A stretch of DNA of 32,927 bases from a virus (IMGVR_UViG_2671181122_000013); one strand, 5' to 3'. Counted from the first letter of the stretch, positions 1,631 to 23,431 are shown. The notes: a model not told the origin generated them from the letters alone. A program made the numbers and translations.

Positions 1631-1635
1631 TGTAA

Positions 1636-1854: not shown

Positions 1855-1935
1855 CGCGAGCACCTCTTCCGGTTTTGTTGATGGTGCCATTTTAGTTAAT
1901 TTATCCTTATAAAACAAACAGATAAAATAAAAACA

Positions 1936-3099
1936 TCACTCATCATCTTCTGTTTCGTACTCCACATCAGAAAGCCTGACCTCAAGCTCCAGGGACGTCG
2001 TGAAGCCGCTATTATTCAGAAAATGTGTCACCTTAGTGATTGTCCAGTCCTGCTCGTCTATGACGCGCTTAAAGCCTGATACTTTGACCGGCGTTTCCGT
2101 GTAAATATCTGCCCGACCAGTAGCCAGACTGATAGAGAACTCCGCAACGCCCCGTTGCAGCTTATCCCACTTCGCCTGAGCGGCGCGCATGGCCTGCGCT
2201 TTCGTGGCATATACCGTGGTCAGGGCAAAAACGTTGTCAGCCTCACCTGCCATGTATTCACCTTCGCGCGCTTCCGGTACTTTTGGCGCTTTCTTCTGCG
2301 TGACCGGTTTTGCTTTCGGGTGCTCCAGTGCGCGCAGGTGTTTTTCTTTCTTTTTGCGTTTCAGTTTTACCTTCTGCTTTTGTGGTTTCGGGTCTTTGGT
2401 GTGTAACCACTTTGCCGTTACGCCGGTATAGGCTCCACGGTCAGCAATCGCAAAATGATGACGGTCACCGTCGCTGCGGGTGATGGTAATCTGCGGGATT
2501 TTTTTACCGCTGGCAGTCACCCCCTGCCCCGCTTTGAGAAACAGCAGTTTTCCCATTTTTACCGACACCTCACCGCCGTTGCGTTCTGCAAGACGGGTCA
2601 GGAATTTCGCATCAGACTCCTGCGACTGGTCGATGTGCGGGATTTTAATTCCGGCCAGTGACGGCGCGACACTGGCTTCCAGCCTGTTACGGGAGGCTAT
2701 TGCCTCAACAATCGCACCGAGCGTGGTGTCATGCCAGGAGCCTTCACGGCGGGAATCGAGCGTCCCGCGAAAATCTGCACTCCGGGCGCGGATGGTGACC
2801 ACATCCGGCGCGCCCCGGTGTTCAACCTCATCAACGGTAAATTTCCCTTTGCATACCAGGGCAAAACCTTTCCAGCCGATATACACCGTCAGGACAGCGC
2901 CACGAATCGGCAGCCCGACCTGCCCGTCGGCATCGTTCAGTTCAATATCAAGCTGGTCAGCCTCAAAGCCCCGGTTATCCGTCAGAGTCATGCTCATCAG
3001 ACGGTCGCTGATATTGCCGGTAATATCCCTGCTGTCGAGCATCAGCATGTAATCCGGCGTCAGCGTACTGCCTGCATCAAATGTCAGCGCATCCAGCAT
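1936..3099 (-). CDS. D: Tail protein gpD (late control D), 387 aa
   Basis: 387 aa equals P2 gpD; position between ogr and U. Confidence 0.85.
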   Translation of the reverse strand: MLDALTFDAGSTLTPDYMLMLDSRDITGNISDRLMSMTLTDNRGFEADQLDIELNDADGQVGLPIRGAVLTVYIGWKGFALVCKGKFTVDEVEHRGAPDVVTIRARSADFRGTLDSRREGSWHDTTLGAIVEAIASRNRLEASVAPSLAGIKIPHIDQSQESDAKFLTRLAERNGGEVSVKMGKLLFLKAGQGVTASGKKIPQITITRSDGDRHHFAIADRGAYTGVTAKWLHTKDPKPQKQKVKLKRKKKEKHLRALEHPKAKPVTQKKAPKVPEAREGEYMAGEADNVFALTTVYATKAQAMRAAQAKWDKLQRGVAEFSISLATGRADIYTETPVKVSGFKRVIDEQDWTITKVTHFLNNSGFTTSLELEVRLSDVEYETEDDE

Positions 3100-3578
3100 T
3101 ATTCCGCCCCCGTCATCCCCGTGAATCTAGTCGCCAGACTACCGGCCTTACCGATGAGCGATTCCGCCTGTTTACCGATATCGCCATAAAGCGCGGCCAG
3201 TGATTCATCAACGCGGGTGAGCGACAGCGTAAAATCAATTTTCCGGGGTGTGCCGTCTGCAAAGAAAATACTCCCTGTTTCACTCACCTTGCTGATGACA
3301 TACATGCCGTAAATCATGCCGGTGCCATCCAGCAACGGCCACGCCCGCCCCTCCTCTGCCATCAGCCTGAGCGTGGTCATCGTCAGCTTGCCGCCGGTCA
3401 GTTCGGGATAAAGCACACCGGCAAGCGTGATGTTTTCCTCACCCACACCGAGAAACTGAAAAGCGTCCCGTTTACCGATACGGGAATTTGACGGCCAGCG
3501 ATAATCTGATTCACGCTGCATGGTCTGGTGTGGCAGCGTCTGGCGCATAAAAACAAACATACCTAACGCGAGCATCAT
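3099..3578 (-). CDS. U: Tail protein gpU, 159 aa
   Basis: 159 aa equals P2 gpU; follows T in the tail operon. Confidence 0.85.
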   Translation of the reverse strand: MMLALGMFVFMRQTLPHQTMQRESDYRWPSNSRIGKRDAFQFLGVGEENITLAGVLYPELTGGKLTMTTLRLMAEEGRAWPLLDGTGMIYGMYVISKVSETGSIFFADGTPRKIDFTLSLTRVDESLAALYGDIGKQAESLIGKAGSLATRFTGMTGAE

Positions 3579-3592
3579 TTTTCGTCACCTCC

Positions 3593-6040
3593 TTAACCGT
3601 CATGCATCATGCTGGCACGGGCGCGCGCACGTTTATCCCGCTCGTATTTTTCGAGCGCATCCTGTAACTGGCGGTCGAGCTGTGTCCCCGGCGCAGTACC
3701 ACCCGTCAGGCTGATGTGATATTCGTTTTTACTCTGGTCTACATAAGAGCGGCCAGCCGGTGCCGTGACCGGCTGATAAGCCTGATAACCTGCATAAGAG
3801 CTGGTCGCCGGAATATAACCACCGCTGCCATACGTGGCGGCTTGAGTTCTGGCGGCGGTCTGGTCAAGTGTGTCTGACTCTTTGTTGATAACACCGAGTT
3901 TTTCCAGTACCCAGTCAATACCACTGCGCAGTTTGTTGAACGCATTAAGCGGCAGCATCAGCGCGTCAGCCAGTGCCTGCCCGAACATGACGCCCGTGTC
4001 ACGGCAACGGTTCAGGGTGTCCTGGGTGGCTTTGACCGGGGCAATCAGGTTTTTAAACCACTGCCACGCGGCCTGTAACTTTTCACCCAGCCAGTCAAAC
4101 ACCGGTTTAAGTGGCGTGAACAGTTCCCCCACCGGCGCAAATGCCGCTTTCAGCCCTTCCACCACACCGCCAAAGAATGCGCTGACAGGCTCCCAGTATT
4201 TACGGATAAGCAACGCCCCGGCGACAATGGCGGCCACCACGGCCACAACCGGCCAGCTAATCGCCCCGATGGCGGTTATAACAGCACTGCCAACCGTCGT
4301 GAAGATTGCCCCCATTGCGCCTGCTGCCGCGATGATGGCATTGATGCCGGTGATAACCGGCCAGGCGACGAGGCCAATGGCACCGATGACACCAATCAGT
4401 GCCAGTGCACCACCGACAATGATGCCGATGGTTGACGCCAGTGATTTGTTTTTCTGGATCCAGCCGTCGAGTTTTAACACATACTTTGTGGCCGTCTGCG
4501 TGAGATTACGCAGTGCGCCTTCCTGCTGGTCAAACAGGTCAGTCCCCACCGCCTCATAAGCGGACTGAAACTCCTTAAAGTCACCGCCGAGGTTGTCCTG
4601 CATGATATTTACCAGCTCTGCGGTCTTCCCGTCTGAGGCTTTAAACGCAGCGGTCAGTTTGTCCAGCTTTCCGGTTGAGGCGGCAGTCATCAGCACAGCG
4701 GCGGCTGAGCTGGCCTCCTCCCCGAAAATGGTTTTCATGTATTCAGCCTGCTGGGCAGTACCGAGCCGGTTTTTCTCAAAACTGGCCTGCATTTCTTTCA
4801 GAATGGTAAATATTGGCCGGGTGTTTCCCTTGCTGTCTGAGGTTTTCACGCCAAGCTCTTTGAGTGCATCCCATGCTTTTCCCGTCGGTGCCTGCAGGCG
4901 GCTTAACACGGCACGGCTTCCCGTCCCCGCCATTGAGCCTGTGATTTTTGCATCATGCAGCGCCCCGACCATTGCGGCGGTTTCTTCAATGCTGACACCG
5001 GCATTTTTTGCCACAGGTGCGGCATAGGTCAGCGCATCGCTCATGCCGTCAAAATCGGCGGCGGTTTTGTTCATCGTCATGGAGAGAACATCCCCGATAT
5101 GAGCGACCTTATCGTTTGAAAGCTGAAAGGCGGATTTCATCCCCATCAGCAGGGCGGCGTTTTCTTCCATCGTGCGGCGGTTCGCCAGCGCCATATTCAG
5201 CGTGACCGGCGTTGCCGCCTGAATGGCATCAACATCCCCACCGGCTTTCGCAATGATAATCTGTGCACCGGCTGCATCATCTGCCGAGGCTGCGGTATTG
5301 TCGCCGAGCTGGCGCGCCTGCTTGCGGAGTGCGGTCATTTCGGCGGAGTCTTTTGCCACTCCGAGCACGGCCTGCAATTCTGAGTTTTTCTGCGCAAATT
5401 CATAACCGGGCATCAGCAATTTAACTCCGGCCATCGTTCCCGCCGCCGCAATCCCCACACCGGCAGCGCCTACTGAGGCCATATTTCCGGCCAGTTCCTT
5501 TCCGGCCTGATAACGCTGTTTGACTGCGTTAAGTTTTGCCTGTTGCGCACTGACACGCGCCAGCGCATCACGCTGACGGTTAAGCTGTGCGGTGGTTTCA
5601 CTGATACGGTTTTTCAGTCCCTGCTCATCATGTGCAAGATTGCGGGTATTAATTCCCACAACGGCCAGTTCCCGCTGCTGGCGTTTAACGGAATCCGTCA
5701 GGCAGTTATATTTCGCCTGTAAGTCCTCCGCCGCACGCTTCGCGGATTCCAGCACTTTCGCCTGAGCACGTGTCGGACGTTCGGTGTTTTTAAACTGTGT
5801 GGCAAGGGCTTCGGCCTCCTGCCGTGCCTTTTCAAGTGCATGACCAGTCACGGCGAGCTGTGCACTGGTCTTGCGAAATCCCTCAATACGGGATGCGTGA
5901 CCGTTCAGCTCGCGCAGTGATTTTTGTGTTTCCCGGATATCCCCCGACAGCGACTTGCTCGCTGTGCGGATGGATTTAAACGGGCGGGATGCCTGGTCAA
6001 CAGCCCTGAGCAATACCTGTAATTTTACATTGTTACTCAT
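3593..6040 (-). CDS. T: Tail tape-measure protein gpT, 815 aa
   Basis: 815 aa equals P2 gpT; Ala/Gly-rich with hydrophobic segments, typical of tape-measure proteins. Confidence 0.9.
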   Translation of the reverse strand: MSNNVKLQVLLRAVDQASRPFKSIRTASKSLSGDIRETQKSLRELNGHASRIEGFRKTSAQLAVTGHALEKARQEAEALATQFKNTERPTRAQAKVLESAKRAAEDLQAKYNCLTDSVKRQQRELAVVGINTRNLAHDEQGLKNRISETTAQLNRQRDALARVSAQQAKLNAVKQRYQAGKELAGNMASVGAAGVGIAAAGTMAGVKLLMPGYEFAQKNSELQAVLGVAKDSAEMTALRKQARQLGDNTAASADDAAGAQIIIAKAGGDVDAIQAATPVTLNMALANRRTMEENAALLMGMKSAFQLSNDKVAHIGDVLSMTMNKTAADFDGMSDALTYAAPVAKNAGVSIEETAAMVGALHDAKITGSMAGTGSRAVLSRLQAPTGKAWDALKELGVKTSDSKGNTRPIFTILKEMQASFEKNRLGTAQQAEYMKTIFGEEASSAAAVLMTAASTGKLDKLTAAFKASDGKTAELVNIMQDNLGGDFKEFQSAYEAVGTDLFDQQEGALRNLTQTATKYVLKLDGWIQKNKSLASTIGIIVGGALALIGVIGAIGLVAWPVITGINAIIAAAGAMGAIFTTVGSAVITAIGAISWPVVAVVAAIVAGALLIRKYWEPVSAFFGGVVEGLKAAFAPVGELFTPLKPVFDWLGEKLQAAWQWFKNLIAPVKATQDTLNRCRDTGVMFGQALADALMLPLNAFNKLRSGIDWVLEKLGVINKESDTLDQTAARTQAATYGSGGYIPATSSYAGYQAYQPVTAPAGRSYVDQSKNEYHISLTGGTAPGTQLDRQLQDALEKYERDKRARARASMMHDG

Positions 6041-6460
6041 TCGTGTTTCCGCTTCGCCGGAGCGCCTTTTCGCGCCATGTGATGAGTTCGGTCAGGCTCA
6101 TGGGATACAGTTCTGATGGCGGCCAGTGAAATATCACTGCCACATCCGCCATCAGGTCATCGACCGAGAGATTTTTCGGGAACGTTACTGCACCGAGTTC
6201 GGCGACAAAAAACCGACCACCTTACCGGCCAGCGCCACAAGGTCAGGCAGTTCCAGCGCGGCGACTTCCTGCTCGGTCAGCATCGGTGCCGTCATGCGCG
6301 GCAGCACCTTAATCAGTGCATCGACTTCGGAGTTTGCGACCGCAGCCAGACTGACACCGCGCAGCGTCCCGGCATTGGGCTTCATCAGCGTGACCTGTTC
6401 GATAACCTGCTCACCACGCTTGACCGGATTGTCCAGGGTAATCACATTTTCTTTGTTCAT
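6033..6460 (-). CDS. gpE+E' product of programmed -1 frameshift (about 143 aa)
   Basis: Slippery heptamer T-TTT-TTG on the minus strand at 6206..6212; hand translation of the -1 frame runs without a stop to TAA at 6033..6035, overlapping the T start. Confidence 0.7.
6185..6460 (-). CDS. E: Tail assembly chaperone gpE, 91 aa
   Basis: 91 aa equals P2 gpE; located between FII and T. Confidence 0.85.
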   Translation of the reverse strand: MNKENVITLDNPVKRGEQVIEQVTLMKPNAGTLRGVSLAAVANSEVDALIKVLPRMTAPMLTEQEVAALELPDLVALAGKVVGFLSPNSVQ

Positions 6461-6516
6461 GGTTTTCTCACTTCTGAATCAGGGTTAACCGGTCAGCCAG
6501 GCTGACCGGATGAAAA

Positions 6517-7035
6517 TCACAGGCCGATATTTCGGCGGTGTTGCTCCAGCCGGTCGACGCCGTTCACCTTCTCAATCATGTTGATGGTGTCGATTTCGAC
6601 CAGCTCCTTACCGTCCATCGTCAGCCGGAAATAGGTGCAGACCACGGAGATTTTCGGCTCGGTGTCTTCTCCCTGTTTACCCTCGCCGGTGTCGATTTCT
6701 TTCTGACGTCCACGCATGACCACTTCGACGGCCACCGTTTCGCCGGTATCGTCACGCTGGTAAGAGCCTGCAAAACGAATCGGCACGGCATCCACACCGG
6801 TTGCGGCGTAAAGCTCCCAGATAACCGAATCCGGGAAGCCCCCGAGCGACCACTCCATTGACAGCGCATCGTCATCAAGGCCGAGGTCTACCGGTGCGCT
6901 GCCGTTCATCCCCGCACCGCGATAGTTTTCGAGCTTACGGGTCAGTTTTGGCAGCGTGACGGACTTTGCAACGCCCTGATAGCTGTAGCCGTTCAGAAAG
7001 ACGTTCATTAACTTGAGTTTGCGCGGCATTGCCAT
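6517..7035 (-). CDS. FII: Tail tube protein gpFII, 172 aa
   Basis: 172 aa equals P2 FII; follows FI. Confidence 0.9.
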   Translation of the reverse strand: MAMPRKLKLMNVFLNGYSYQGVAKSVTLPKLTRKLENYRGAGMNGSAPVDLGLDDDALSMEWSLGGFPDSVIWELYAATGVDAVPIRFAGSYQRDDTGETVAVEVVMRGRQKEIDTGEGKQGEDTEPKISVVCTYFRLTMDGKELVEIDTINMIEKVNGVDRLEQHRRNIGL

Positions 7036-7047
7036 CGGTCAGGCTCC

Positions 7048-8238
7048 TTAATTGCTGTTAACCGAAGTGACCAGATTTGCCAGGTATTTATCGGTAATAC
7101 GCTGGCGCAGGGTCAGGTTTTCGAGAGGAGGCACCGGGGTATAGTCGTAGTCGATATACAGTTTTCCGGCCTTGAGGGTTTCCGCATCGTTGGATTCTTC
7201 GCTGAACCAGCAGGTCGCATCCACGATATAGCCGTTTGTTTTCAGCTCACGGAATTTGGCATTGATGCCGTCAACGATGTCGCGAATCAGCGTTGCGGTG
7301 ATGGGCTTGTCCACCGCCCACATGTGCGCCTCAGCCATCGTGTCGGCCAGCACCTGCGCGGTGCGGGTGTAGTTTTCAAAGAGGAACAGCGGGTCATCAG
7401 AGCAGGTACGGTTACCCCAGAAGCGGAAACCGTCACGGCGAATCAGCGTTGTGACGCCTGACTCGTTAAGCAGGTCAGCATCGGTGCCGGACTCCTGCAA
7501 ATCCCAGAATACAGAGGCGCTGATGCCGGTAACACCGTTCACCCCAACGTTGGACAGCGTTTTATGCCAGCCCTGCTCCTGGTCGATTTTAGCGCGCAGA
7601 CCCAGCGCACGGGCGGTGGCATACGCGGTGGCGGTGGTACTGGTGACCGTATCCCATGCGAGGAAATCCGGCCAGATGACCATCAGCTCACGCTGGCTGA
7701 AATTCTGGCGGTAGGCTTTCACCTCGGAAATGGTTTTACAGCCCCATGCGCTGATATACCCGAAAGCGCGCAGCTTCTGACAGACTGATGCCAGTGCAAC
7801 AGCCACCTCTTTGGTGTCCAGTCCCGGAACACCGAGAATGCGCGGTTTAACACCGGTTACCGACTCCGCCGCCAGCAGGGCTTTCAGTCCGGTGTACTGA
7901 CCGTTTTCGTCGGTGGTGCCGATGATATTGGAAACGGTCTGCGCGAGTTTCGTTTCCTCGTCGTCGCCGCTGCCGTCTTCCACACGCACAACAACGGTGA
8001 CCGGTTTTGACTGGTCAGCGATAGCCTGCAACGATGCCGCCAGCGTGCCTTTTTTACCGGCCTTTGCAATTGCGCTCTGCACATTGGTAATCAGCACCGG
8101 TTTATTGAGGGGGAAGGTTTCCGCATCCGCATCGCTGGCCGTGCAGACCATGCCGACAATGGCGGTGGATACGGTGGAAATGACGCGGGTGCCGTCGTTA
8201 ATCTCCAGCACCTGCACGCCGTGATGATAGTCACTCAT
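7048..8238 (-). CDS. FI: Contractile tail sheath protein gpFI, 396 aa
   Basis: 396 aa equals P2 FI. Confidence 0.9.
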   Translation of the reverse strand: MSDYHHGVQVLEINDGTRVISTVSTAIVGMVCTASDADAETFPLNKPVLITNVQSAIAKAGKKGTLAASLQAIADQSKPVTVVVRVEDGSGDDEETKLAQTVSNIIGTTDENGQYTGLKALLAAESVTGVKPRILGVPGLDTKEVAVALASVCQKLRAFGYISAWGCKTISEVKAYRQNFSQRELMVIWPDFLAWDTVTSTTATAYATARALGLRAKIDQEQGWHKTLSNVGVNGVTGISASVFWDLQESGTDADLLNESGVTTLIRRDGFRFWGNRTCSDDPLFLFENYTRTAQVLADTMAEAHMWAVDKPITATLIRDIVDGINAKFRELKTNGYIVDATCWFSEESNDAETLKAGKLYIDYDYTPVPPLENLTLRQRITDKYLANLVTSVNSN

Positions 8239-8297
8239 CCGTTTAACTCCGTGGTTAATGGGTGAGTGATATTTTCAGTTGTGCCGGAGATGTCAGG

Positions 8298-8891
8298 CTA
8301 TTTATCCCGGTTGGCTAAGGGATGACACAATTTATTTTTTGTCACGGAGGCGGGGAATTTTTTATAGAGCGTGGACAGGCCAATATCAAAAATCAGTGCC
8401 ACGCGTTGACGTGATTCCCCTGCAGCCAACAACCGCCCGGCCTGCTCCCACTCACTCGCGGTGAGTTTCGAACGTCTGCCACCAATACGACCTTTAGCTC
8501 TGGCCGCTTCCAGTCCGGCGCGAGTCCGCTCGACAATGAGTTCTCGTTCCGTTTCAGCCAGGGCACCCATCACATGAAAGAAAAAACGTCCCATCGGCGT
8601 GCTGGTATCAATGGCATCCGTCAGGCTGCGAAAATTAACGCCGCGTTCGCGCAGTTCCTCAACCAGAATGACCAGATGCCGCATACTACGCCCCAGCCTG
8701 TCCAGCTTCCAGACCACCAGAGTGTCACCTGCTGATAATGTTCTGAGCAGTTTTTTCAGTCCCGGTCGGTCGGACTTCGTGCCGCTGATTTTATCCTCAA
8801 AAATCAGCTCACATCCTGCACACTCCAGCGCGTTACGCTGCAATTCCGTGTTCTGGTCATTTGTTGACACGCGCACATAGCCAATAAGCAT
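8298..8891 (-). CDS. Site-specific DNA invertase, serine recombinase of the Gin/Pin/Hin/Cin family (about 197 aa)
   Basis: N-terminus MLIGYVRVSTNDQNTELQRNAL with catalytic-serine context and C-terminal HTH; very similar to remembered Gin/Pin sequences. Start taken at the second ATG (8891). Confidence 0.9.
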   Translation of the reverse strand: MLIGYVRVSTNDQNTELQRNALECAGCELIFEDKISGTKSDRPGLKKLLRTLSAGDTLVVWKLDRLGRSMRHLVILVEELRERGVNFRSLTDAIDTSTPMGRFFFHVMGALAETERELIVERTRAGLEAARAKGRIGGRRSKLTASEWEQAGRLLAAGESRQRVALIFDIGLSTLYKKFPASVTKNKLCHPLANRDK

Positions 8892-8918
8892 GAGCATCCC
8901 CCTGAATAAAAACCGGAG

Positions 8919-9332
8919 ATGATGCCAGTTGCCCGTTATCTCTGCATTTTCATAAACGTTGGTTTGGGAGAAGCGGCAAAACGGGATGTGGGGACAGGGG
9001 AAAATCAGATACCGGACATGGCCTCTTTTGCCAGTGGTGATGGATGGATGAAATTACCCAACGGGAAAATCCTGCAATATGGTCGTGGTGCGGTTACGCC
9101 GACATTATCGACGCAAACAATGAGAATTACATTCAGCATCCCTTTCCCCAAAAAAGCGGACTGCGCCATGCTTACTCATTCTGGTGATGGCGGTGCGCCT
9201 TTAGGCGCTGGGCGAGGGTTCGTGATGACTGCAGAAGGCCCAACGTTAACCGGCTTTAATTCTGCTTACAGAACGTCATCAACCAGCGACACGGTATCGA
9301 TGAATTACAGTTGGTGGGCTGTTGGTGAGTAA
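8919..9332 (+). CDS. Silent alternative tail-fibre C-terminal cassette (expressed only after inversion, fused to the H constant region)
   Basis: Plus-strand ORF reading through the crossover site in frame (…NVGLGE…); shares the GLGE junction with H; ends in a tail-fibre-like C-terminus; followed by a tail-fibre assembly gene. Confidence 0.6.
   Translation: MMPVARYLCIFINVGLGEAAKRDVGTGENQIPDMASFASGDGWMKLPNGKILQYGRGAVTPTLSTQTMRITFSIPFPKKADCAMLTHSGDGGAPLGAGRGFVMTAEGPTLTGFNSAYRTSSTSDTVSMNYSWWAVGE
8947..8972. repeat. 26-bp invertase crossover site (left), TTTTCATAAACGTTGGTTTGGGAGAA
   Basis: Imperfect palindrome of the TTnnnnnAAACC/GGTTT type; 14 bp (TTGGTTTGGGAGAA) are an exact inverted repeat of 10847..10860. 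Confidence 0.75.
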
Positions 9333-9343
9333 TTTTATTCAGG

Positions 9344-9796
9344 GTGATTTATATGAACGAATATGTTTATAGCGCAAGGCATAATGCTTTTTTCCCTGTG
9401 GATATGATTGATAAATATAAATCAGAGGGATGGGATTTATCAGACGCTAAGGAAGTAAATCAAAATATTATCAGTGAGTTTATGGCTGAACCGCCACAAG
9501 GAAAAATCCGTATTGCCGGAGATGATGGGCTGCCTGCGTGGGCAGATATTCCTCCACCCACGCATGAAGAGCTTATTGAAATTACTGAATCAGAAAGACA
9601 GCTACTAATTAACCAGGCCAACGAATACATGAACAGTAAGCAATGGCCCGGTAAAGCCGCTATTGGTCGTCTGAAAGGTGAGGAACTGGCGCAATATAAT
9701 TTGTGGCTGGATTATCTGGATGCACTGGAGCTGGTTGATACCTCCAGTGCGCCAGATATTGAATGGCCTACGCCTCCGGCAGTTCAGGCCAGATGA
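9344..9796 (+). CDS. Alternative tail-fibre assembly protein (Tfa/U'-like), 150 aa
   Basis: C-terminal motif LWLDYLDALELVDTSSAPDIEWP typical of Tfa chaperones; convergent with and overlapping the 3' end of the active-orientation Tfa gene. Confidence 0.75.
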   Translation: MIYMNEYVYSARHNAFFPVDMIDKYKSEGWDLSDAKEVNQNIISEFMAEPPQGKIRIAGDDGLPAWADIPPPTHEELIEITESERQLLINQANEYMNSKQWPGKAAIGRLKGEELAQYNLWLDYLDALELVDTSSAPDIEWPTPPAVQAR

Positions 9797-10370
9797 CATC
9801 CGGCGCGGTGCTGGTATCTGTTGCCGTCACCGCGTCAATGTAATCCAGCACGGCGTTAAGTCGGGTTGTTTCTGCCTGCGTCAACTTCCGTCCGGCCTGT
9901 AATTTCAGCTGAATCAGACTAATGGAAACCATTGCTGCATCAATCAGTGACTGGCGCTGTGCTTCTGCCGCGTCTACTGCGGCGCTATGCTGTGCCTCAG
10001 TATCCGTCACCCATTTCTCACCATCCCATTTATCATATGGCGTTAACGGGGCGATAGTGGTTGTATTTTCAGGGTAATCACCCGGAGCTGTGATTTCTTT
10101 GGCGTCTCCCGTTTCGGTGTTATAGACGATTTCACCGCGATGGTCTGACACATATTCCCATGATTTTAAATCCACAGAACGGCAAATTGTATAACCAGCT
10201 TTATGTGTAACTGGTGCATCTAAACAAGAACATGCCGGGATACCGACGCCAACCGCAAGATATTCAGTTGATGTGGAAATATATTCCCGCGTTTCACCAT
10301 CATAGTTATAAACGGTAATATCCCCTGCCTTTGTAGCAACAAGTCCACTATTTAATATTGCTTTATCCAT
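9768..10370 (-). CDS. Tail-fibre assembly protein (gpG-position, Tfa family), 200 aa
   Basis: C-terminal motif LNAVLDYIDAVTATDTSTAPDVIWP; directly downstream of H on the same strand. Confidence 0.8.
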   Translation of the reverse strand: MDKAILNSGLVATKAGDITVYNYDGETREYISTSTEYLAVGVGIPACSCLDAPVTHKAGYTICRSVDLKSWEYVSDHRGEIVYNTETGDAKEITAPGDYPENTTTIAPLTPYDKWDGEKWVTDTEAQHSAAVDAAEAQRQSLIDAAMVSISLIQLKLQAGRKLTQAETTRLNAVLDYIDAVTATDTSTAPDVIWPELPEA

Positions 10371-11686
10371 TATGCTGCTCTCACGATATAGTTAAATGCA
10401 ATGCTTCTTGGTCTGTTCTCTGAGGCAGTTGGCACTACTCTTGAAGCATCAAAATTGACTAAATGAGGATTGTTTGGGGTATTTGGAATGATTGTGGTGT
10501 TACCTATCGTATTACGAAGTGCTGATTGACTTACAAAAACACCACTCGCTGTATTAAAGCTAATAGCCGCATTAGCTTCGGTTTGTCCATTACCAAATGT
10601 GCCGGTTATATTACGAATAGCATCCCCCTGAGCAGACAGAATTTCGCGCCCCGCGTCAATACCGCGCCCGTCATCCCAGCCACGAATAAACTCACCACGT
10701 AAATCAGGCAATTTATTTGTCGGATAAGCCTTTGCCAGTTCCGGGTATTCTTCAGCAGAAAAAGCGGCACCGTTGCATTTCAGCCAGCCTGTTGGCGGAG
10801 TGGCGGAAGGCCACGGAACAGGCACGCCAACGGGTAATGCCGAACCTTCTCCCAAACCAAGGTATGCAAGAAGACCGGCAACATCCTTCCCACTCAAATG
10901 AGTCAGCGTCTCATCCAGTGGCTGCTTACCTGACAGCGCATTGTTAATGGTGGTACTGAATTTCGGGTCATTGTTGATAGCTGCGGCAATTTCTTTCAGT
11001 GTGTCCAGCGTGTCAGGGGCACCGTTAATCAGAGCGGTAATAGCGGCCTGTACAAACGCAGTGGTCGCAATCCGCGTGGTGTTATTTCCTGCGGCAGGCG
11101 TCGGCGCTTTTGGTTCTCCGGTAAATGTCGGATTATGTTTCTGTGCATACTGGGTATGAGGATCCTGTGCGGCAATGTGGTTTCTCATCTGGTCATCCAC
11201 ATACAGCTTTAATTCCAGGACTTTATCATCCACGTATTTACGGGTCGCCAGTACCACCGACGGGTCGATTTTCAGCGTGATGGCTTCGGTATTCGTGACA
11301 ACCAGAATCATGCGGATAGTCTGGGTACGACCACTGCCTTCCTGCAACTGCGGTTTGTACGTTTCCGGGCAGTTCGCCACCGCAATGAGTACGCCTTCAT
11401 CATCATAAAGCCCAATCTCACGGATCCAGAATCCGCCCTCGTTCTCAGGGATGATTTGCTCCGCAATAATCTGGCTCTGGTTGTTCGGGTCAACACTCAG
11501 AAGATTCAGCGGCGCGATGCGTTTCTGGTTAATCAGTTTTGTCTGTGCCGGGTCTGGTGTCGGCAAGACACCATTCGCATCACCAACGGCCATTTGCGTC
11601 AGATTCAGCTTACTGCCGAGCATCGTCGCGTTAGCCAGCCGTGCTGCGCCCTGATTAGTCAGAATGGCGTAGTATTTCACTGTCAT
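10370..11686 (-). CDS. H: Tail fibre protein gpH, 438 aa (constant N-terminus plus currently expressed variable C-terminus)
   Basis: Position between I and the Tfa gene; shorter than the 669-aa P2 gpH, consistent with a replaced C-terminal module. Confidence 0.85.
   Translation of the reverse strand: MTVKYYAILTNQGAARLANATMLGSKLNLTQMAVGDANGVLPTPDPAQTKLINQKRIAPLNLLSVDPNNQSQIIAEQIIPENEGGFWIREIGLYDDEGVLIAVANCPETYKPQLQEGSGRTQTIRMILVVTNTEAITLKIDPSVVLATRKYVDDKVLELKLYVDDQMRNHIAAQDPHTQYAQKHNPTFTGEPKAPTPAAGNNTTRIATTAFVQAAITALINGAPDTLDTLKEIAAAINNDPKFSTTINNALSGKQPLDETLTHLSGKDVAGLLAYLGLGEGSALPVGVPVPWPSATPPTGWLKCNGAAFSAEEYPELAKAYPTNKLPDLRGEFIRGWDDGRGIDAGREILSAQGDAIRNITGTFGNGQTEANAAISFNTASGVFVSQSALRNTIGNTTIIPNTPNNPHLVNFDASRVVPTASENRPRSIAFNYIVRAA
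10847..10872. repeat. 26-bp invertase crossover site (right), inside gene H
   Basis: TTCTCCCAAACCAAGGTATGCAAGAA; inverted partner of 8947..8972; falls near H codon 271 (…AYLGLGEGS…). Confidence 0.75.
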
Positions 11687-12294
11687 GCGTTTACTCTCAG
11701 GTTATCAATTAAATGAATGGCCGAGGCCGGGAAATAATCCCCTCCGACAATAATGGCCTCCGGGGTGTAGGGATAAACCGTCAGGGCGTCGCCGTGATAG
11801 CATCCCGCACCGGCAAAAATGTTGCCGTTTGTACTTAAACTGATAGCCAGTCCCGTCAGATGGCGGCTTGCCGGTTTTGCATCAGCAACGAGGCGCTCCA
11901 GCTCCTGATACATTTCCTCGGTAATACCCTGCTCAAGCACACCAACAACGATGCGGAACGTCCCCGGCTCCTCATTGAGTTGCCACCACTCCCTCACCTC
12001 AATCAGATAGCCGAGCGGCTCCACCACACGCCGGATTGCGCCTATAGTGCCCTTATGGCAGTGAATGAAATACGCATCGCGGATAACAGCGCGTTTTGTC
12101 GCTTCCGGCCACTTATCATCCCAGCGGTCAACCGAAAATGACCACGCCAGCCACGGCAGCAGATTTGCCGGGCAGGTGTCCGGGTTCCACAGCTCACGAA
12201 TACTGACCGGCGTTTTTTCAATTTCCGCACAGGCTTTTGCGGCGGCAACTTCAAGCGGTGATGAGCCGGTCGGCAGCAAGCGCGAATTACTCAT
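11683..12294 (-). CDS. I: Baseplate protein gpI, 203 aa
   Basis: Position between J and H with translationally coupled overlaps at both ends; length differs from the 176 aa I recall for P2. Confidence 0.8.
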   Translation of the reverse strand: MSNSRLLPTGSSPLEVAAAKACAEIEKTPVSIRELWNPDTCPANLLPWLAWSFSVDRWDDKWPEATKRAVIRDAYFIHCHKGTIGAIRRVVEPLGYLIEVREWWQLNEEPGTFRIVVGVLEQGITEEMYQELERLVADAKPASRHLTGLAISLSTNGNIFAGAGCYHGDALTVYPYTPEAIIVGGDYFPASAIHLIDNLRVNA

Positions 12295-13195
12295 CCGAGC
12301 CTCCGGTCACGACGCGGTATTCGGTACAGAAAGACGCCTGCGTGCTGTTAAGCACGATATCGGCCAGCGGTGCAGCCAGTTCGACACGCTGCACGCCTTC
12401 CACATGCAAAGCGGCATAAATGGCAGACAGACGGATGTCGCGCCCCAGCCGGTGCTGTGCCGTGATGTACGCTTCCAGTTTTTTCACGGCAGCAGCGCGG
12501 ATGGGTTCGCTTTCGGGACCAGGGTAAAGGTAAAGCGTGGCGTTTATCTGGTATTCAACGATGGCAGCAGACTGCACGGTCACGCGGTCGGCCACCGGCC
12601 TGACGTCCTCGCCATTAAGGGCGTTACGCACCACGGCCAGCAGGTCTTCGGATGCGACGCCGTTATTTTCACGTGACAGCACGGAGATAGTGACACAGGC
12701 CGGAGACGGACTGGTGACAGAGATATCCGCGACACGCCCGTCGGCACTGCGACCATGATACTGATAGGCACCCACCGACCCGGCGACGCTTAAACCTTCA
12801 AAGGCCTGCTGAATACGCAGACGATAATCGGTGTCAGATTCCATCACGGCCGGTGTCGGCGGGAGGGTCGAATCATCTGCCGGAGTGATAATCAGGCGCG
12901 TGGTGTTGTAATTGGCACCAATCACATCAAGGTCATTACCGGCTGCACAGGCCAGCATCACCGCCCGTGCGGCCTCATTCACACGCTGACGCCAGATAAG
13001 CTCACGATAAGCATTTTCCTCCAGCAGTTTGACGAGAGGTTCGGATTCCAGCGTCAGGGTACGGGCGACCGCCTCCTGCTGGTCTTCCGGGTAAAGGGAA
13101 ATCAGTGTCGCCTTGCGTTCGGCAAGAATGGTTTCAAAGTCCAGCTCCTCGACCACATCCGGTGCGGGTAGCTGGTTCAGGTCGATAATCGGCAT
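12287..13195 (-). CDS. J: Baseplate protein gpJ, 302 aa
   Basis: 302 aa equals P2 gpJ. Confidence 0.9.
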   Translation of the reverse strand: MPIIDLNQLPAPDVVEELDFETILAERKATLISLYPEDQQEAVARTLTLESEPLVKLLEENAYRELIWRQRVNEAARAVMLACAAGNDLDVIGANYNTTRLIITPADDSTLPPTPAVMESDTDYRLRIQQAFEGLSVAGSVGAYQYHGRSADGRVADISVTSPSPACVTISVLSRENNGVASEDLLAVVRNALNGEDVRPVADRVTVQSAAIVEYQINATLYLYPGPESEPIRAAAVKKLEAYITAQHRLGRDIRLSAIYAALHVEGVQRVELAAPLADIVLNSTQASFCTEYRVVTGGSDE

Positions 13196-13199
13196 GGTT

Positions 13200-13547
13200 T
13201 CAACTCACAGGGATGGTTAACGAAAGTGGCTGGCCGGTGTCGTTGTGCTGGCCGGTTAACGTGACCGTCATTCGCCCGTCAAAACTGTGCTCAGTGGTGA
13301 CGGATGACAGGGTGACGCGGGGTTCCCATTTCAGCACCGCCATGTAACAGGCGACCTTAATCTGCAACTCAAGCGCCGGGGTCTGCGGCTGGTCAATCAT
13401 TGATGCCAGCAACGAGCCGTAATCACGACGCATCACCCGTGAGCCGACCGGTGTGCGCAGGATATCGCCGATACTCTGGCTGATATGCTCAAGGTCAGTG
13501 ACAGTCAGGCCATCACTGCGATTCATTCCGAGATAACGCGCTGTCAT
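13200..13547 (-). CDS. W: Baseplate wedge protein gpW (T4 gp25-like), 115 aa
   Basis: 115 aa equals P2 gpW. Confidence 0.9.
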   Translation of the reverse strand: MTARYLGMNRSDGLTVTDLEHISQSIGDILRTPVGSRVMRRDYGSLLASMIDQPQTPALELQIKVACYMAVLKWEPRVTLSSVTTEHSFDGRMTVTLTGQHNDTGQPLSLTIPVS

Positions 13548-14179
13548 AAAGGACTCCCGGTTGTGCCGCCGCTGTCGCCGGGGTGTTTATGGGTATGCAG
13601 TACCTTACCGTTTGATGAGAGTTCACCGCCGGTGTGTTCAATGTTGCCGCGCATCGTCCCGCCCTTCTGTACTTCCAGCGTGTCGGTAATCAGCCTGTTG
13701 GTGCAGACCACCTCCGGTGTGTCCAGGGTGATGCGGGTTGACGCTTTCACCATGACCACCGGCACCGTGGCAGTAACAGAATCAGAAGCCGTCACGCTGG
13801 CCGTTTTAATTCCGCTTACCGTCAGTGCACTGGTTTCAGGTTCATACTCAATCACCGCCCCGTCAGGGAAACGGATATGCAGGGCATCCGCCGACGCAGA
13901 CGGCGCGGGGTTATCGCCGGAATAAATCCCCGGCAGAACAAACGCCGTGTCAAGTTCACCGCCCACGGCCAGAATCAGCACCTGCTCCCCCACGGAAGGT
14001 GCCCACCATGTGCGCGAACGCCCGGCACGACAGGTCAGCCACTGAAGCCAGTCGGTGCACATGCCGCCGGTCTGCACACGGCAGCGACCGGCGTTAAGGT
14101 CGGTTTCGACGACAAGGCCGGTGCGAATCATGTTGCGCAGTGCGCGCGCGAGTTCCTGGATATTTGCGAGAGTGTTCAT
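13544..14179 (-). CDS. V: Baseplate spike protein gpV, 211 aa
   Basis: 211 aa equals P2 gpV. Confidence 0.9.
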   Translation of the reverse strand: MNTLANIQELARALRNMIRTGLVVETDLNAGRCRVQTGGMCTDWLQWLTCRAGRSRTWWAPSVGEQVLILAVGGELDTAFVLPGIYSGDNPAPSASADALHIRFPDGAVIEYEPETSALTVSGIKTASVTASDSVTATVPVVMVKASTRITLDTPEVVCTNRLITDTLEVQKGGTMRGNIEHTGGELSSNGKVLHTHKHPGDSGGTTGSPL

Positions 14180-14245
14180 AACGGGAAGGATGCCGCCGGG
14201 TCATACCGGCGGCAATGTGACGATGAGGTGTCGGGAATGGCACAA

Positions 14246-14698
14246 CTAACGGTCGAGGTGAGCCAGGATAATCTCTTCAATCATCTGCACATCCTCACCG
14301 GTGAAACCGAGCAGAGGGCGCGCCGGATAATTAATTTTCTTACCGTCTTTCCGGTTTTCTTCCGACAGACCGAACTGATGCACGCTGGCGATTTTCGGTG
14401 ACTTCCCGCCGTAAAACTCCATTGATGCCTGTTCAGGGCTGGCGCGGATATGCAAAAAACGACTGGTAATAAGTTTCGCAAACATTTTTCGCTTAACACG
14501 ACCAGTCTTTTTTCTGGCGCTCTGCTGCTGGCGTGGCGCGTAGGGTGTGCCGTCCGGGGCTTTCTGTGCCATCACCCGACGCTGCTGACTCTGACGCAGA
14601 CGTTTCGCCAGTTCGGCGCTCAGTCGCCGACGCCCTGACGGTGACAGCGACTCAATCAGTCCGGTCAGCCGGTCTTCAAAACGCTTAAACTCATTCAT
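14246..14698 (-). CDS. S: Tail completion protein gpS, 150 aa
   Basis: 150 aa equals P2 gpS. Confidence 0.85.
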   Translation of the reverse strand: MNEFKRFEDRLTGLIESLSPSGRRRLSAELAKRLRQSQQRRVMAQKAPDGTPYAPRQQQSARKKTGRVKRKMFAKLITSRFLHIRASPEQASMEFYGGKSPKIASVHQFGLSEENRKDGKKINYPARPLLGFTGEDVQMIEEIILAHLDR

Positions 14699-15158
14699 CC
14701 CACTTGCTCACCAGTTCGCCATTGATATAAAGCTTCATCGGGCGGGTGACCGGCTCCGGCGGCGTGGGTTCCGGGATATTCTTCACATGCAGCGCGCCGT
14801 CCACCTCACTGACCAGCGTGCGTTCGGTCAGCATCAGGCTGATGCTGATATCAAAGCTGCTGTCATTGTTGATGTCTGCATAAAACGTGAAGCCCTTTTT
14901 CTGGCCTTCGTCGGTGGTCATGATGTCGGGCTGATTTTCCCGCAGCCACGCCAGCACCGGCACGATGAGCAGGTCAAAATCACCGGTAAAGTCGGTCACA
15001 ATCACATTGAGCGTGTAACGCTTTTCGAATGACAGCGACGTCGCCAGTGTGGAGGCAATACTCCCGTTATCCACGAATATCCGCAGCATCTCGGGACTGG
15101 TTTTCAGCACCGTGACGGCATCAGTCAGCGCCCTGCGCAGGCTGTCGGGTTTGAGCAT
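14691..15158 (-). CDS. R: Tail completion protein gpR, 155 aa
   Basis: 155 aa equals P2 gpR. Confidence 0.85.
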   Translation of the reverse strand: MLKPDSLRRALTDAVTVLKTSPEMLRIFVDNGSIASTLATSLSFEKRYTLNVIVTDFTGDFDLLIVPVLAWLRENQPDIMTTDEGQKKGFTFYADINNDSSFDISISLMLTERTLVSEVDGALHVKNIPEPTPPEPVTRPMKLYINGELVSKWDE

Positions 15159-15411
15159 CGTTTTCGTCCTGACAGTGTTTAATCATTTTTACCTGGCTGG
15201 CACAGCGTGCCAGCGCGTTCTCAAGCTGTCGGATATCGGCACTTAAATCGCCGTTCGTCTCCGGGTCACTGCCCGGCATCGGGCAAAGGCTCACTTTCGG
15301 GCAGGCGTTGGCGACAATCACTGGCGTCGGTGCAGGCCGGGCGCTGGTGCAACCGGCGCACAGCATCAGGCAGGCCAGCGCCGTACCAGCGGCGAAAATC
15401 TTCGTTTTCAT
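15121..15411 (-). CDS. lysC: LysC, Rz1-like outer-membrane lipoprotein spanin, 96 aa
   Basis: Lipobox LMLCAGC in the signal peptide, Pro-rich mature region; nested out of frame across the lysB 3' end and R 5' end as in P2. Confidence 0.75.
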   Translation of the reverse strand: MKTKIFAAGTALACLMLCAGCTSARPAPTPVIVANACPKVSLCPMPGSDPETNGDLSADIRQLENALARCASQVKMIKHCQDENDAQTRQPAQGAD

Positions 15412-15691
15412 TCAGTAACCTCGTGATGGTTTTCTCGCGCTGTGCTTCACGCTTCGCCGCGTTCTCCAGTTCCTGACGCAGTGCCACCTGCGCCAGCTCG
15501 TTTTTGTCTGCCCTGGTGATGGCAACATGAAGCTGATTTTTCAGCATGGTGATGGTCGTCTGCTGTTCACTGGCGACGTTATTCGCCCTGTCCAGCGAGG
15601 CGCGCAGGCTGGCATTTTTGTGTTTCACCAGAAACAGACCGGTCACCGCCAGCGATAACAACACGACCAGCACAATCATCAGCTTTGACAT
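15266..15691 (-). CDS. lysB: LysB, Rz-like inner-membrane spanin (about 142 aa)
   Basis: Start moved to the internal ATG (MSKLMIVLVVLLSLAV…): N-terminal transmembrane segment then coiled-coil-like region; the 194-aa ORF is an upstream extension. Confidence 0.8.
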   Translation of the reverse strand: MSKLMIVLVVLLSLAVTGLFLVKHKNASLRASLDRANNVASEQQTTITMLKNQLHVAITRADKNELAQVALRQELENAAKREAQREKTITRLLNENEDFRRWYGAGLPDAVRRLHQRPACTDASDCRQRLPESEPLPDAGQ

Positions 15692-16104
15692 GGTTCCCGC
15701 CCCCCAAGACGCTGACGGCAGGCCGTACGTATCAGCCGGAAGAACACCGACGCCACGAGGTAAATCAGCGCGGTAAAAATCCACCCGGCAGCGACCAGCG
15801 AGATAAACGTCGCCACCATCACCACCAGAGCCGCCGCCCGTCTGCGCCACGGCACCGGCTGCAAAAACAGCGACGCGACAATCTTCACGGCCAGCGATTC
15901 CGGCGGCAGCTCCCGCCCGTAGCGTTCCAGCACATACTCAGTGGCATACACGCCGACACCACCGGCAACCACACAGATAACCGTCGCCAGAATCGCCCAG
16001 GCGGCAACAAAACTGACGGCCACGCTCTGCGGGTAAATCAGGGACAGTGCCAGCATCAGCGCCAGCGACACGTTCAGCATCAGTGAAAGGGATAATTTCT
16101 TCAT
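15679..16104 (-). CDS. lysA: LysA lysis-timing membrane protein, 141 aa
   Basis: 141 aa equals P2 LysA; multiple hydrophobic transmembrane segments. Confidence 0.8.
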   Translation of the reverse strand: MKKLSLSLMLNVSLALMLALSLIYPQSVAVSFVAAWAILATVICVVAGGVGVYATEYVLERYGRELPPESLAVKIVASLFLQPVPWRRRAAALVVMVATFISLVAAGWIFTALIYLVASVFFRLIRTACRQRLGGREPCQS

Positions 16105-16118
16105 GGTGTTTACTCCGT

Positions 16119-16616
16119 TTAAGCCGGTACGCCGCCAGCGGTACGCCAGACGGTGACCAGTTTTTCCAGTGAATGCTCACGCTGACCGTAACCGGCACCC
16201 GGCAGGGACGCCCAGATATTGCGACAGCGTGAAATGGCGCGCTCAATGCGTCCCGCCCGGATGTCATCCAGTGCACCGCGTTCGCGGATCAACTGAATGG
16301 CGAGTCTGTCCTGTGACAACGGACTGAAATCCGGCAGGGCAAGCTGTTTGCGGTAGTGCGGCCAGAACAGGTAAAGCTGCTGATAGCGACCGGAGGCCGT
16401 GGATTTTTCACCGCGACGGTTAAACACCTTCGCCGGTCGGCCATGCGCGAACGGGTGGTCACTGTAGTCAGTGAAAATTTCCGGCTTCCCGTCCAGTCCG
16501 GTGACTATCACGTCATAGCCCCGGTTTTTCGTCAGCGGATGATTCGCCGTCCCTTCGGACACGGCCAGCATGTCGAGAAAGGCCGCGATATTCTGATGCG
16601 TGTTAATTACCGGCAT
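16119..16616 (-). CDS. K: Endolysin gpK, 165 aa
   Basis: 165 aa equals P2 gpK; located between the holin and lysA. Confidence 0.85.
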   Translation of the reverse strand: MPVINTHQNIAAFLDMLAVSEGTANHPLTKNRGYDVIVTGLDGKPEIFTDYSDHPFAHGRPAKVFNRRGEKSTASGRYQQLYLFWPHYRKQLALPDFSPLSQDRLAIQLIRERGALDDIRAGRIERAISRCRNIWASLPGAGYGQREHSLEKLVTVWRTAGGVPA

Positions 16617-16897
16617 TACGGTTTCCCCCTGCCCTTAAAACGGCGCTGAATGGCAATCTCAATCACCTGATAACCGGCGATACCCAGCATGGAGCCGATA
16701 CCGCACACCGCAGGCAGTGACAGGTCAGGAAACTGCACCAGAACAACACCGGCAACCATCGAGACAAAACCACCGAGCAACATGCGCCCGATAAACAGAC
16801 GCGGGGTGATGGGTTCACCACCGGCAAGCACCTTGCCGACAACAATCAGCACCCCAATCATGAAAAGCGACAGGACGCTTTTTTCTTCTGCTGTCAT
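16616..16897 (-). CDS. Y: Holin gpY, 93 aa
   Basis: 93 aa equals P2 gpY; hydrophobic segments and a charged C-terminus. Confidence 0.85.
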   Translation of the reverse strand: MTAEEKSVLSLFMIGVLIVVGKVLAGGEPITPRLFIGRMLLGGFVSMVAGVVLVQFPDLSLPAVCGIGSMLGIAGYQVIEIAIQRRFKGRGKP

Positions 16898-16900
16898 GCG

Positions 16901-17613: not shown

Positions 17614-17712
17614 GACTACCTCTGAAAAGTCGGGCGGTGGACGCCGGTGAAGTGTCAGGTGATTCACCCTCACTGACCGGCGTGCCGCCCTGGCGCGGGG
17701 CGCATTCGGTTG

Positions 17713-18456: not shown

Positions 18457-18459
18457 CGG

Positions 18460-23426: not shown

Positions 23427-23431
23427 ACATC

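Follow-up and report, generated by a model that had tools for sequence, protein, structure and literature searches.

Organisation of the locus

We analysed a 32,927-nucleotide stretch of viral DNA (IMGVR_UViG_2671181122_000013, here called the window), in which the P2-type genes I, sheath, ogr and integrase were identified. Peduovirus records cover 74-86% of positions 1..25000 at ~97% identity. The features discussed below are these, with positions counted from the first letter of the window:

8298..8891, minus strand: serine DNA invertase of the Pin/Gin type, 197 aa from ATG 8891
8307..8335, minus strand: counterpart of the annotated Ogr activator-binding site of P2 pF, within the last codons of the invertase ORF
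8734..8798, minus strand: candidate position of a Fis-dependent recombinational enhancer, nt 94-158 of the invertase gene
8947..8972, no strand assigned: left 26-bp crossover site, TTTTCATAAACGTTGGTTTGGGAGAA, made up of TTTTCATAAACG TT GGTTTGGGAGAA, with the outer half-site toward the invertase
8959..10860, no strand assigned: invertible segment, 1902 bp as measured between the central dinucleotides of the two sites, unique part 8973..10846
8973..9332, plus strand: silent alternative H C-terminus, 119 aa; Gp53-like_C (PF21882, E 1e-12); PHROG 1396 'tail fiber protein'
9353..9796, plus strand: alternative chaperone Tfa', silent in the present orientation; Caudo_TAP (E 2e-31); PHROG 188
9768..10370, minus strand: Tfa chaperone of the present orientation, TfaE-like; Caudo_TAP (E 7e-32); PHROG 105
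10370..10846, minus strand: variable H C-terminus of the present orientation, aa 281-438, StfE-like; Collar (PF07484) at aa 287-334
10370..11686, minus strand: tail-fibre gene H, 438 aa; Phage_tail_fib N-terminal domain and Collar
10847..10872, no strand assigned: right 26-bp crossover site, TTCTCCCAAACCAAGGTATGCAAGAA, made up of TTCTCCCAAACC AA GGTATGCAAGAA, within H codons 272-280
10873..11686, minus strand: constant N-terminal part of H, aa 1-271; Phage_tail_fib (PF12571, E 1.5e-62)

The late genes run in the P2 order V-W-J-I-H ... FI-FII-E-T-U-D-ogr. Identity to P2 is 82% for protein I and ~96% for the pF promoter region over the final 83 bp ahead of FI. In P2, as an earlier note on this DNA had correctly stated, a fixed H of 669 aa is followed by G, fun(Z) and FI, and our locus corresponds to the G-Z/fun-FI interval. 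Here, invertible cassettes and an invertase stand in place of the one chaperone gene G and fun(Z), and H has 438 or 399 aa according to orientation. The same note had described a modular replacement of the fibre end. Exchange of the C-terminus was borne out, but the difference from P2 exceeds a swap of tips, with H only ~42% identical to P2 H over the N-terminal part.

The constant 5' part of H lies outside the invertible segment, and two convergent pairs, each consisting of an H 3' part and a Tfa gene, lie within it. The constant part attaches to the baseplate. We found the H, Tfa, silent-cassette and Tfa' reading frames where they had been placed before, with one adjustment: Tfa' can also be read from GTG 9344 (9344..9796, plus strand), and while this frame stood, the start is probably ATG 9353, because RefSeq homologues are annotated from an ATG (444 nt). 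At the nucleotide level, the 5' end of the present H C-terminus was ~90% identical to e14 stfE, and the match to the HK97 stf/tfa region was 91%; the present Tfa gene was 90% identical to e14 tfaE and shares 29 bp at its 3' end with the Tfa' gene. Judged by sequence, the cassettes are of the e14/HK97 type. The two tips belong to unrelated Pfam domain families (Collar versus gp53-like C).

The silent cassette is part of an ORF at 8919..9332 (plus strand) that reads in frame through the left site, as had been proposed, without an evident promoter. Both this ORF and Tfa' are intact. When 8959..10860 was inverted in silico, an intact 399-aa H' was obtained, joining the constant part to the alternative C-terminus and followed by the Tfa' gene. 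In a scan of 8100..11800, promoter-like sites were no commoner than in shuffled sequences and terminator-like sites were weak. Neither the two variable tips nor the two chaperones had significant BLASTP similarity to Mu S, S', U or U', to the C-terminus of P2 H or to P2 G, which rules out a Mu- or P2-type identity of the cassettes.

A Pin/Gin-type invertase beside the segment

The invertase gene is located between the sheath gene FI and the 1.9-kb segment, outside the latter. Its assignment to the Gin/Pin family was upheld: the protein is 79% identical to Mu Gin and 87% identical to PinE of the K-12 prophage e14, contains Resolvase (PF00239, E 1e-51) and HTH_7 (PF02796, E 8e-13, aa 140-183) domains, and matches PHROG 125 ('DNA invertase'). 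Comparison with the Gin structure 3UJ3 (E 3.5e-93) placed a serine at the Gin S9 position, and alignment to Gin (3UJ3/4M6F) showed conservation of YVRVSTNDQ and DRLGRS. The ORF is intact with all catalytic motifs conserved; the catalytic serine, whose inactivation the earlier note had considered, is not mutated. The reading frame was as previously described, with a possible start at ATG 8897 (8298..8897, minus strand, 199 aa), but the true start is probably ATG 8891, since this agrees with the Gin/Pin start and with RefSeq annotation and since the Shine-Dalgarno AGGGGG abuts ATG 8897. No sigma-70-like promoter was found upstream of the gene in the scan of 8100..11800. The C-terminal tail runs 13 aa past the end of PinE. 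The DNA-binding third of the gene has only ~60-65% nucleotide identity to pinE, and the site preference may therefore differ somewhat from that of Pin.

We searched the invertase gene for the enhancer that its 5' part was expected to contain. G..C 15-mers with A/T-rich centres were found at three places: nt 94-108, where gin and pinE have one too, and nt 131-145 and 144-158, both shared with pinE. With the strict Fis pattern GNNYRWWWWWYRNNC, the conserved candidate at nt 94-108 had no partner in the gene at 48 bp, the spacing of the hin enhancer. The 594 nt contained 41 matches to the degenerate pattern KNNYRNNWNNYRNNM with no more than one mismatch; this pattern was too unspecific to discriminate, and windowed identity to gin was no higher in the expected enhancer region than elsewhere in the gene. 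The enhancer would fall within the 5' 360 nt, whose identity to e14 pinE is ~88% (candidate region ~88-93%). In Hin, residues K47/R48/K51 and Q151/R154/L155 are reported to be specific to Fis/enhancer-dependent invertases and to contact Fis or the enhancer (McLean et al., PMC3798978). The equivalents of Hin 47/48/51 are basic in our protein (RPGLKKLLRTL, K-K-..-R) and those of Q151/R154/L155 are conserved (EQAGRLL). By inference, a Fis enhancer would lie in the 5' part of the invertase gene and the switch would depend on Fis and this enhancer.

Two crossover sites of the gix/pix type

The two 26-bp inverted sites and their exact 14-bp match were confirmed at the coordinates proposed earlier. 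Aligned in inverted register, the sites agree at 20 of 26 positions, and the 14 contiguous identical bases (TTGGTTTGGGAGAA) recur nowhere else in the window, even at up to 2 mismatches. A third site, as in the shufflon of one EPEC prophage, was not found in the window within 2 mismatches of this core. Both sites have the 12-2-12 layout of gix/hix, their central dinucleotides (TT in the left, AA in the right) are compatible with inversion, and the shared inner half-site agrees with that of Mu at 10/12 positions. When the whole window was compared with Mu gix, the right site was the best match (19/26) and the left site tied for second (17/26). The left site is identical, as its reverse complement, to the e14 pix site adjoining pinE.

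The right site had been put near codon 271 of H, which is close enough, as the crossover dinucleotide lies in codon 276. Both junctions read GLGE, as was claimed (..LAYLGLGEGSALP.. in H and ..INVGLGEAAKRD.. in the cassette). The frame through the site gives Y-L-G-L-G-E here and N-L-G-L-Q-E, in the same frame, in Mu S. At 10868 the right site has an A where 7/7 compared loci have a G; the change is synonymous in H. This A makes the half-site more like hixL and may affect binding.

A further inverted repeat in the region (I3, 17 nt, 94%) resembles chance, so the length of a repeat is not decisive by itself. What is decisive for the sites is their rank among gix matches together with natural inversions that break exactly at the repeats.

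Both orientations occur in related genomes

Among complete E. coli genomes, we found the arrangement of the window in 71 and the predicted flipped arrangement in 66. The near-clonal O157:H7 strains TW14359 and EC4115 differ at this 6.5-kb locus only by a perfect inversion delimited by the 14-bp repeats, with no other mismatch: flanks of 2274 bp and 2355 bp are identical, and the 1875-bp middle of one is the exact reverse complement of the other's. Isolate TUM11352 holds both states on two replicons, one on the chromosome and the other on a plasmid, in the same pattern with a middle of 1881 bp. Both orientations are thus present in near-identical prophages. The breakpoints of natural flipped homologues fall inside the 14-bp repeats, and in flipped genomes the codons of the silent cassette form the end of a 399-aa H' ORF. 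Flipped genomes and the in-silico flip agree with the earlier proposal that inversion would exchange the H C-terminus and Tfa for their alternatives.

In Escherichia phage P2 from O157:H43 T22 (KC618326), gene content and order are the same, at 94-97% nucleotide identity. The O157:H7 P2-like prophage, found in both orientations, differs in the distal part of the present variable H cassette (8% of the query unmatched). The differences are only allelic, the other being the single base change in the right site of the window relative to the seven compared loci. Inversion in P2-like prophages of EPEC, reported for E2348/69, has been demonstrated by sequencing and PCR, the loci being described as phase-variable (PMC4272514); one EPEC prophage has three sites and four states, whereas the window has two sites and two states. 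In the same study, the e14 segment was found in both orientations in K-12 cultures, and both variants were confirmed by PCR.

A very probable two-state switch of the tail fibre

Taken together, these results make us highly confident that a complete P2-like prophage here carries a tail-fibre cassette of the Pin/Gin (Din) type that can be inverted between two states. In the mechanism that we propose, dimers of the invertase would bind both 26-bp sites, and the sites would come into synapsis, probably with an enhancer, located in the 5' part of the invertase gene, to which Fis is bound. The active-site serine would then cut both sites at the central TT/AA dinucleotide, and subunit rotation and religation would leave 8959..10860 inverted. 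H is transcribed and translated from its constant part (10873..11686), which the segment does not include. With the segment as it now lies, the 438-aa fibre with the StfE-like Collar tip and the TfaE-like chaperone would be made; after inversion, the products would be the 399-aa fibre with the gp53-like tip and Tfa'. With two alternative fibre and chaperone products, the particles released by a lysogenic culture would therefore be of two kinds, differing in receptor specificity. We would expect this lysogen itself to switch and its two fibres to differ in host range.

We consider it quite unlikely that the architecture is invertible but frozen in this prophage, whether because the right site has changed, the enhancer has been lost or the invertase gene is silent, so that only the present H and Tfa are made. 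True, the outer half of the right site has a unique A at 10868, and neither a recognisable promoter 5' of the invertase (by the scan) nor an enhancer (by sequence patterns in the gene) was identified; on the other hand, the invertase ORF and its catalytic motifs, the silent cassette and Tfa' are all intact, and loci only a few percent from the window are found in both orientations. The 5' 360 nt of the gene also resemble pinE, and the e14 segment has been seen both ways (PMC4272514).

A second alternative, that ORF 8919..9332 is an independent 137-aa gene ('gp53-like domain-containing protein' in RefSeq) rather than a promoterless cassette, is very improbable. Although the ORF starts with an ATG and many genomes list it as a CDS of its own, the crossover site and the outer flank, rather than a tail-fibre domain, account for its first 18 codons, homology to tail-fibre families starts only at ~aa 19-45, and the scan showed nothing promoter-like 5' of it. 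Once inverted, these codons become the C-terminus of an intact H', and the equivalent e14 ORF, stfE, is treated as a pseudogene fragment.

Finally, inverted repeats can mis-orient assemblies, and a repeat of 14-18 bp is the only sequence common to both ends, but it is extremely improbable that the inversions between genomes arose by RecA-dependent homologous recombination or as assembly artefacts rather than through the adjacent invertase: this length is far short of that needed for efficient RecA recombination, the repeats are gix/pix-type sites beside a Pin-type invertase, and the near 1:1 split over ~137 independently assembled complete genomes fits frequent enzymatic switching. The PCR-confirmed e14 variants and the phase-variable EPEC loci argue in the same direction (PMC4272514).

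Overlap of the invertase gene with pF

The counterpart of the Ogr site aligns with P2 17555-17583 in an ungapped register (19/29 identical), and the sequence downstream is ~96% identical to P2 up to the FI ATG. The last ~12 invertase codons overlie this counterpart. The invertase ORF ends inside pF, its stop codon being ~35 bp upstream of the position that matches the annotated P2 pF transcription start, and the gene lies downstream of the H-Tfa late operon and is co-oriented with it. Given this overlap and position, switching could be coupled to the late (Ogr-dependent) programme, via read-through into the invertase gene or via Ogr occupancy, and the tail-fibre type would be re-randomised mainly at induction and not in lysogeny. 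We regard such coupling as quite unlikely.

Relation to known inversion systems

The switch as we read it is closely related to the e14 P-inversion (pinE, stfP/tfaP, tfaE/stfE). The 14-bp core is present at both e14 sites, and the two systems share the pix site beside the invertase gene, closely related invertases, ~90% nucleotide identity between the present H tip and Tfa genes and stfE and tfaE, a constant part followed by two convergent cassette and chaperone pairs, the 29-bp tfa overlap and an invertase outside the segment. Unlike the defective lambdoid element e14, however, the prophage here is complete and P2-like; its constant part is a P2-type H instead of StfP, its second cassette encodes a gp53-like tip instead of the StfP tip, and its invertase has the extra 13-aa tail and the diverged DNA-binding third.

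The Mu G segment has the same order and polarity (Sc, [Sv U, then U' Sv' inverted], gin), a related invertase, 26-bp sites of the 12-2-12 layout and the LGL(Q/G)E frame through the site. It differs in length (~3 kb in Mu, 1.9 kb here) and in central dinucleotide (GA/TC in Mu, AA/TT here), and for the cassettes and chaperones here no similarity to Mu S, S', U or U' was detected. The C segment and Cin of phage P1 are the counterpart of the Mu G segment and Gin.

The arrangement is thus already known: it is the e14 P-segment/Mu G-segment design in the Z/fun hotspot of P2-like phages. It has been described for P2-like prophages (PMC4272514; bioRxiv 10.1101/2024.10.15.618418), DNA invertases with inverted neighbouring genes are reported to be frequent in this hotspot (bioRxiv 10.1101/2024.10.15.618418), and the switch appears among the annotations of phage records. 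As a discovery, a textbook mechanism (inversion of Mu G, P1 C and e14 P) at an already-reported location carries little weight. Its use lies elsewhere. RefSeq annotation of the flipped state is in error, as the intact H' is called a pseudogene plus a separate gene. Either orientation is legitimate, so that orientation differences between E. coli assemblies at this locus should be taken neither for phylogenetic signal nor for misassembly. Prediction or engineering of host range in P2-like phages and tailocins should consider both receptor-binding tips and both chaperones.

Gene map of the tail-fibre region

We mapped the open reading frames (ORFs) of positions 6000..14000 and assigned them as follows.

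Genes of the tail-fibre region
12287..13195, minus strand: J, P2-type tail gene
11683..12294, minus strand: I, P2-type tail gene
10370..11686, minus strand: H, tail-fibre gene, 438 aa; tail-fibre N-terminal domain and Collar (Pfam, PHROGs)
9768..10370, minus strand: Tfa, 200 aa; Caudo_TAP tail-fibre assembly chaperone (Pfam, PHROGs)
9344..9796, plus strand: Tfa', alternative chaperone; Caudo_TAP tail-fibre assembly chaperone (Pfam, PHROGs)
8919..9332, plus strand: silent cassette; gp53-like tail-fibre C-terminal domain
8298..8897, minus strand: invertase, 199 aa; Resolvase and HTH_7, 'DNA invertase' (Pfam, PHROGs)
7048..8238, minus strand: FI, P2-type sheath gene

The ATG of the Tfa ORF overlaps the H stop codon, and the two plus-strand ORFs sit in the minus-strand gap between Tfa and the invertase. 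In the cassette, the gp53-like match begins at aa 45 in Pfam and at about aa 19 in PHROG 1396. The Tfa and Tfa' genes are convergent and their 3' ends overlap by 29 bp (9768..9796), and on its opposite strands this shared stretch codes for the ..(I/E)WP..P.. motif that is conserved at the C-terminus of each protein.

The invertase

The invertase belongs to the Gin/Pin family, as the earlier note had stated. Besides its Resolvase and HTH_7 domains, it matched crystal-structure sequences of Gin, the invertase of phage Mu (E 3.5e-93), and was 79% identical to Gin and 87% to PinE of e14, a cryptic K-12 prophage. A serine was found at the Gin S9 position, where the 3UJ3 chain has Ala and the 4M6F chain Ser. 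Alignment showed that residues described as conserved only in Fis/enhancer-dependent invertases (basic Hin 47/48/51 and Q151/R154/L155; McLean et al., PMC3798978) are kept. The Fis enhancer itself was not located by sequence in the invertase gene, and a promoter scan recognised no invertase promoter.

A Shine-Dalgarno sequence, AGGGGG, touches the first ATG of the ORF, with 6 nt between it and the second (8891). Because Gin, Pin and the RefSeq homologues start at the second, ATG 8891 is likely to be the true start. Over nucleotides 1-360 the gene shares ~88% identity with e14 pinE; the region for the DNA-binding domain (8298..8530, gene nt 361-594) is only ~60-65% identical to pinE, with gin about equally distant. 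As the 3' third has diverged from pinE, the gene is a mosaic. Its ORF runs 13 aa past the end of PinE (8298..8335).

The crossover sites

A repeat search found an inverted repeat of 18 nt (94%) at 8956..8973 and 10846..10863, a length unconvincing by itself because another inverted repeat in the region (I3; 17 nt, 94%) looks like chance. Written as 26-mers, the left site (8947..8972) is TTTTCATAAACG-TT-GGTTTGGGAGAA and the right site (10847..10872) is TTCTCCCAAACC-AA-GGTATGCAAGAA. Aligned in inverted register, they share 20 of 26 bases, 14 of them in one unbroken run, and no third copy of this 14-mer was found in the window at up to two mismatches. We then scored all 26-mers of the 32.9-kb window against both gix sites, the crossover sites of Mu, as given in its database record. 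The right site was the top match in the whole window (19/26) and the left site tied for second (17/26), while the inner half-site common to both matched that of Mu at 10 of 12 positions. By this sequence measure, both sites are gix-like. On the plus strand their central dinucleotides are TT and AA, so the two match exactly once one site is inverted; strand exchange by serine invertases needs identical central dinucleotides.

The right site spans H codons 272-280 (LLAYLGLGE), and the left site is in frame within the plus-strand ORF (..INVGLGE..). Thus both the inverted sites with their 14 exact base pairs and the in-frame GLGE junctions of the earlier note were borne out. Mu S reads ..NLGLQE.. 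across gix, in the same frame as in the window sites. At 10868, in the outer half of the right site, the window has A and 7 of 7 compared homologous loci have G; the A is synonymous in H (Leu codon).

Both orientations in E. coli genomes

The segment was flipped in silico by taking the reverse complement of 8959..10860. H then continued across the junction into the silent cassette, giving an uninterrupted ORF of 399 aa (H') with the alternative chaperone gene behind it; this is the predicted exchange of C-terminus and Tfa. Both arrangements (3.5 kb each) were searched in 5,426 complete E. coli genomes with a coverage cut-off of at least 80%. At this cut-off, 71 genomes carried the window's arrangement and 66 carried its flipped counterpart, many of them O157:H7 strains with the same prophage. 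O157:H7 TW14359 and EC4115 were compared over loci of 6,504 bp. Their flanks (2,274 and 2,355 bp) are identical, the 1,875-bp middle of one is the exact reverse complement of the other, and nothing else differs; the breakpoints lie within the 14-bp repeat. Isolate TUM11352 has the locus on its chromosome (L009, NZ_CP134384.1) and in a plasmid record (L008), identical except for the same inversion. For these other E. coli genomes, the comparisons strongly support flipping of the module, and precisely at the two sites predicted. The TUM11352 plasmid record is pMTY11352_3 (NZ_CP134387.1, 88,440 bp), and the loci compared were 6.5 kb. Its copy of the locus may be a true second prophage or may have arisen in assembly from a mixed population.

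In flipped genomes, RefSeq (PGAP) splits the intact H' in two, a pseudogene fragment 'missing C-terminus' and a 'gp53-like domain-containing protein' of its own (homologous loci L003, 3791..4990; L007, 3794..5215; L008, 3797..4996). ORF checks gave an H' of 473 aa in KTa005, against 399 aa in both EC4115 and the plasmid of TUM11352. For loci oriented like the window, RefSeq lists the silent cassette as an independent gene. Together these calls form a systematic artefact of annotation where fibre genes are invertible.

Relation to Mu, e14 and P2

Layout and polarity are as in Mu, where Sc is followed by Sv and U, then by U' and Sv' inverted, and then by gin. Similarity of the window's tips and chaperones to those of Mu or P2 was not detectable. 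Judged by sequence, the closest relative of the module is the P-inversion of e14. There, the pix site next to pinE is identical to the left site, tfaE and stfE are ~90% identical to the present chaperone and fibre tip, and the convergent chaperone genes (tfaP/tfaE) show the same 29-bp overlap.

P2 has the order H (669 aa), G, terminator, fun(Z) on the opposite strand, pF and FI. Its I protein is 82% identical to that of the window but its H only ~42%, across the N-terminal 260 aa; the replaced module therefore begins at the start of H, not merely at the tip. At the other end, identity to P2 is ~96% in the last 83 bp before FI, which, given the P2 order G, fun(Z), FI, places the module at the Z/fun position as claimed. 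P2's annotated Ogr activator-binding site of the late promoter pF aligned without gaps to 8307..8335, in the last invertase codons (19/29 identical), and the invertase stop codon lies ~60 bp before the FI ATG. The invertase thus fits the Z/fun position tightly. The 13-aa tail of the invertase spans this counterpart.

P2 H (L011, aa ~369-400) contains ..IEYLGLQETVNRAGNAVQKNGDTLSGGL.., the motif that spans gix in Mu S. As P2 has no invertase, this resembles the remnant of a former crossover-site region.

The prophage and its restriction-modification genes

Features that place the prophage
1..1362: U32 peptidase gene, a host gene at the prophage end
1445..1530: sRNA gene CyaR/RyeE (Rfam, 100.7 bits), host
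1636..1917, minus strand: ogr, phage
31173..32198: integrase gene

P2-like phage homology begins at ~1547. From this, the host genes at the end and the integrase, the window holds a whole P2-like prophage inserted beside cyaR. The old/tin hotspot of this prophage, between the portal gene and replication gene A, carries at 23727..26243 a type II restriction-modification system, and this stretch is missing from the closest phage records.

Genes at the old/tin hotspot
23727..24920, minus strand: C5 cytosine methyltransferase
24896..25210, plus strand: small HTH controller-like protein
25188..26243, plus strand: SacI-family restriction endonuclease (PADLOC REase_II, E 3e-251)

Known switches of this kind

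This kind of switch is already known and not new. Examples include the Salmonella prophages Fels-2 and SopE-phi (Fin invertase) and carotovoricin Er, a P2-like tailocin. Annotated phage records contain this gene set too; one is KC618326, with a 'phage DNA invertase' and two tail-fibre assembly genes (94-97% identity). Goldberg et al. 2014 (PMC4272514) described phase-variable inversions for EPEC E2348/69, in one two-state and one four-state P2-like prophage, and read them as tail-fibre switching. DNA invertases with inverted neighbour genes are reported to be frequent in the Z/fun hotspot (Egorov et al., bioRxiv 10.1101/2024.10.15.618418). The invertible tail fibre is confirmed as an observation, and its interpretation as a switch that would change host range is supported.
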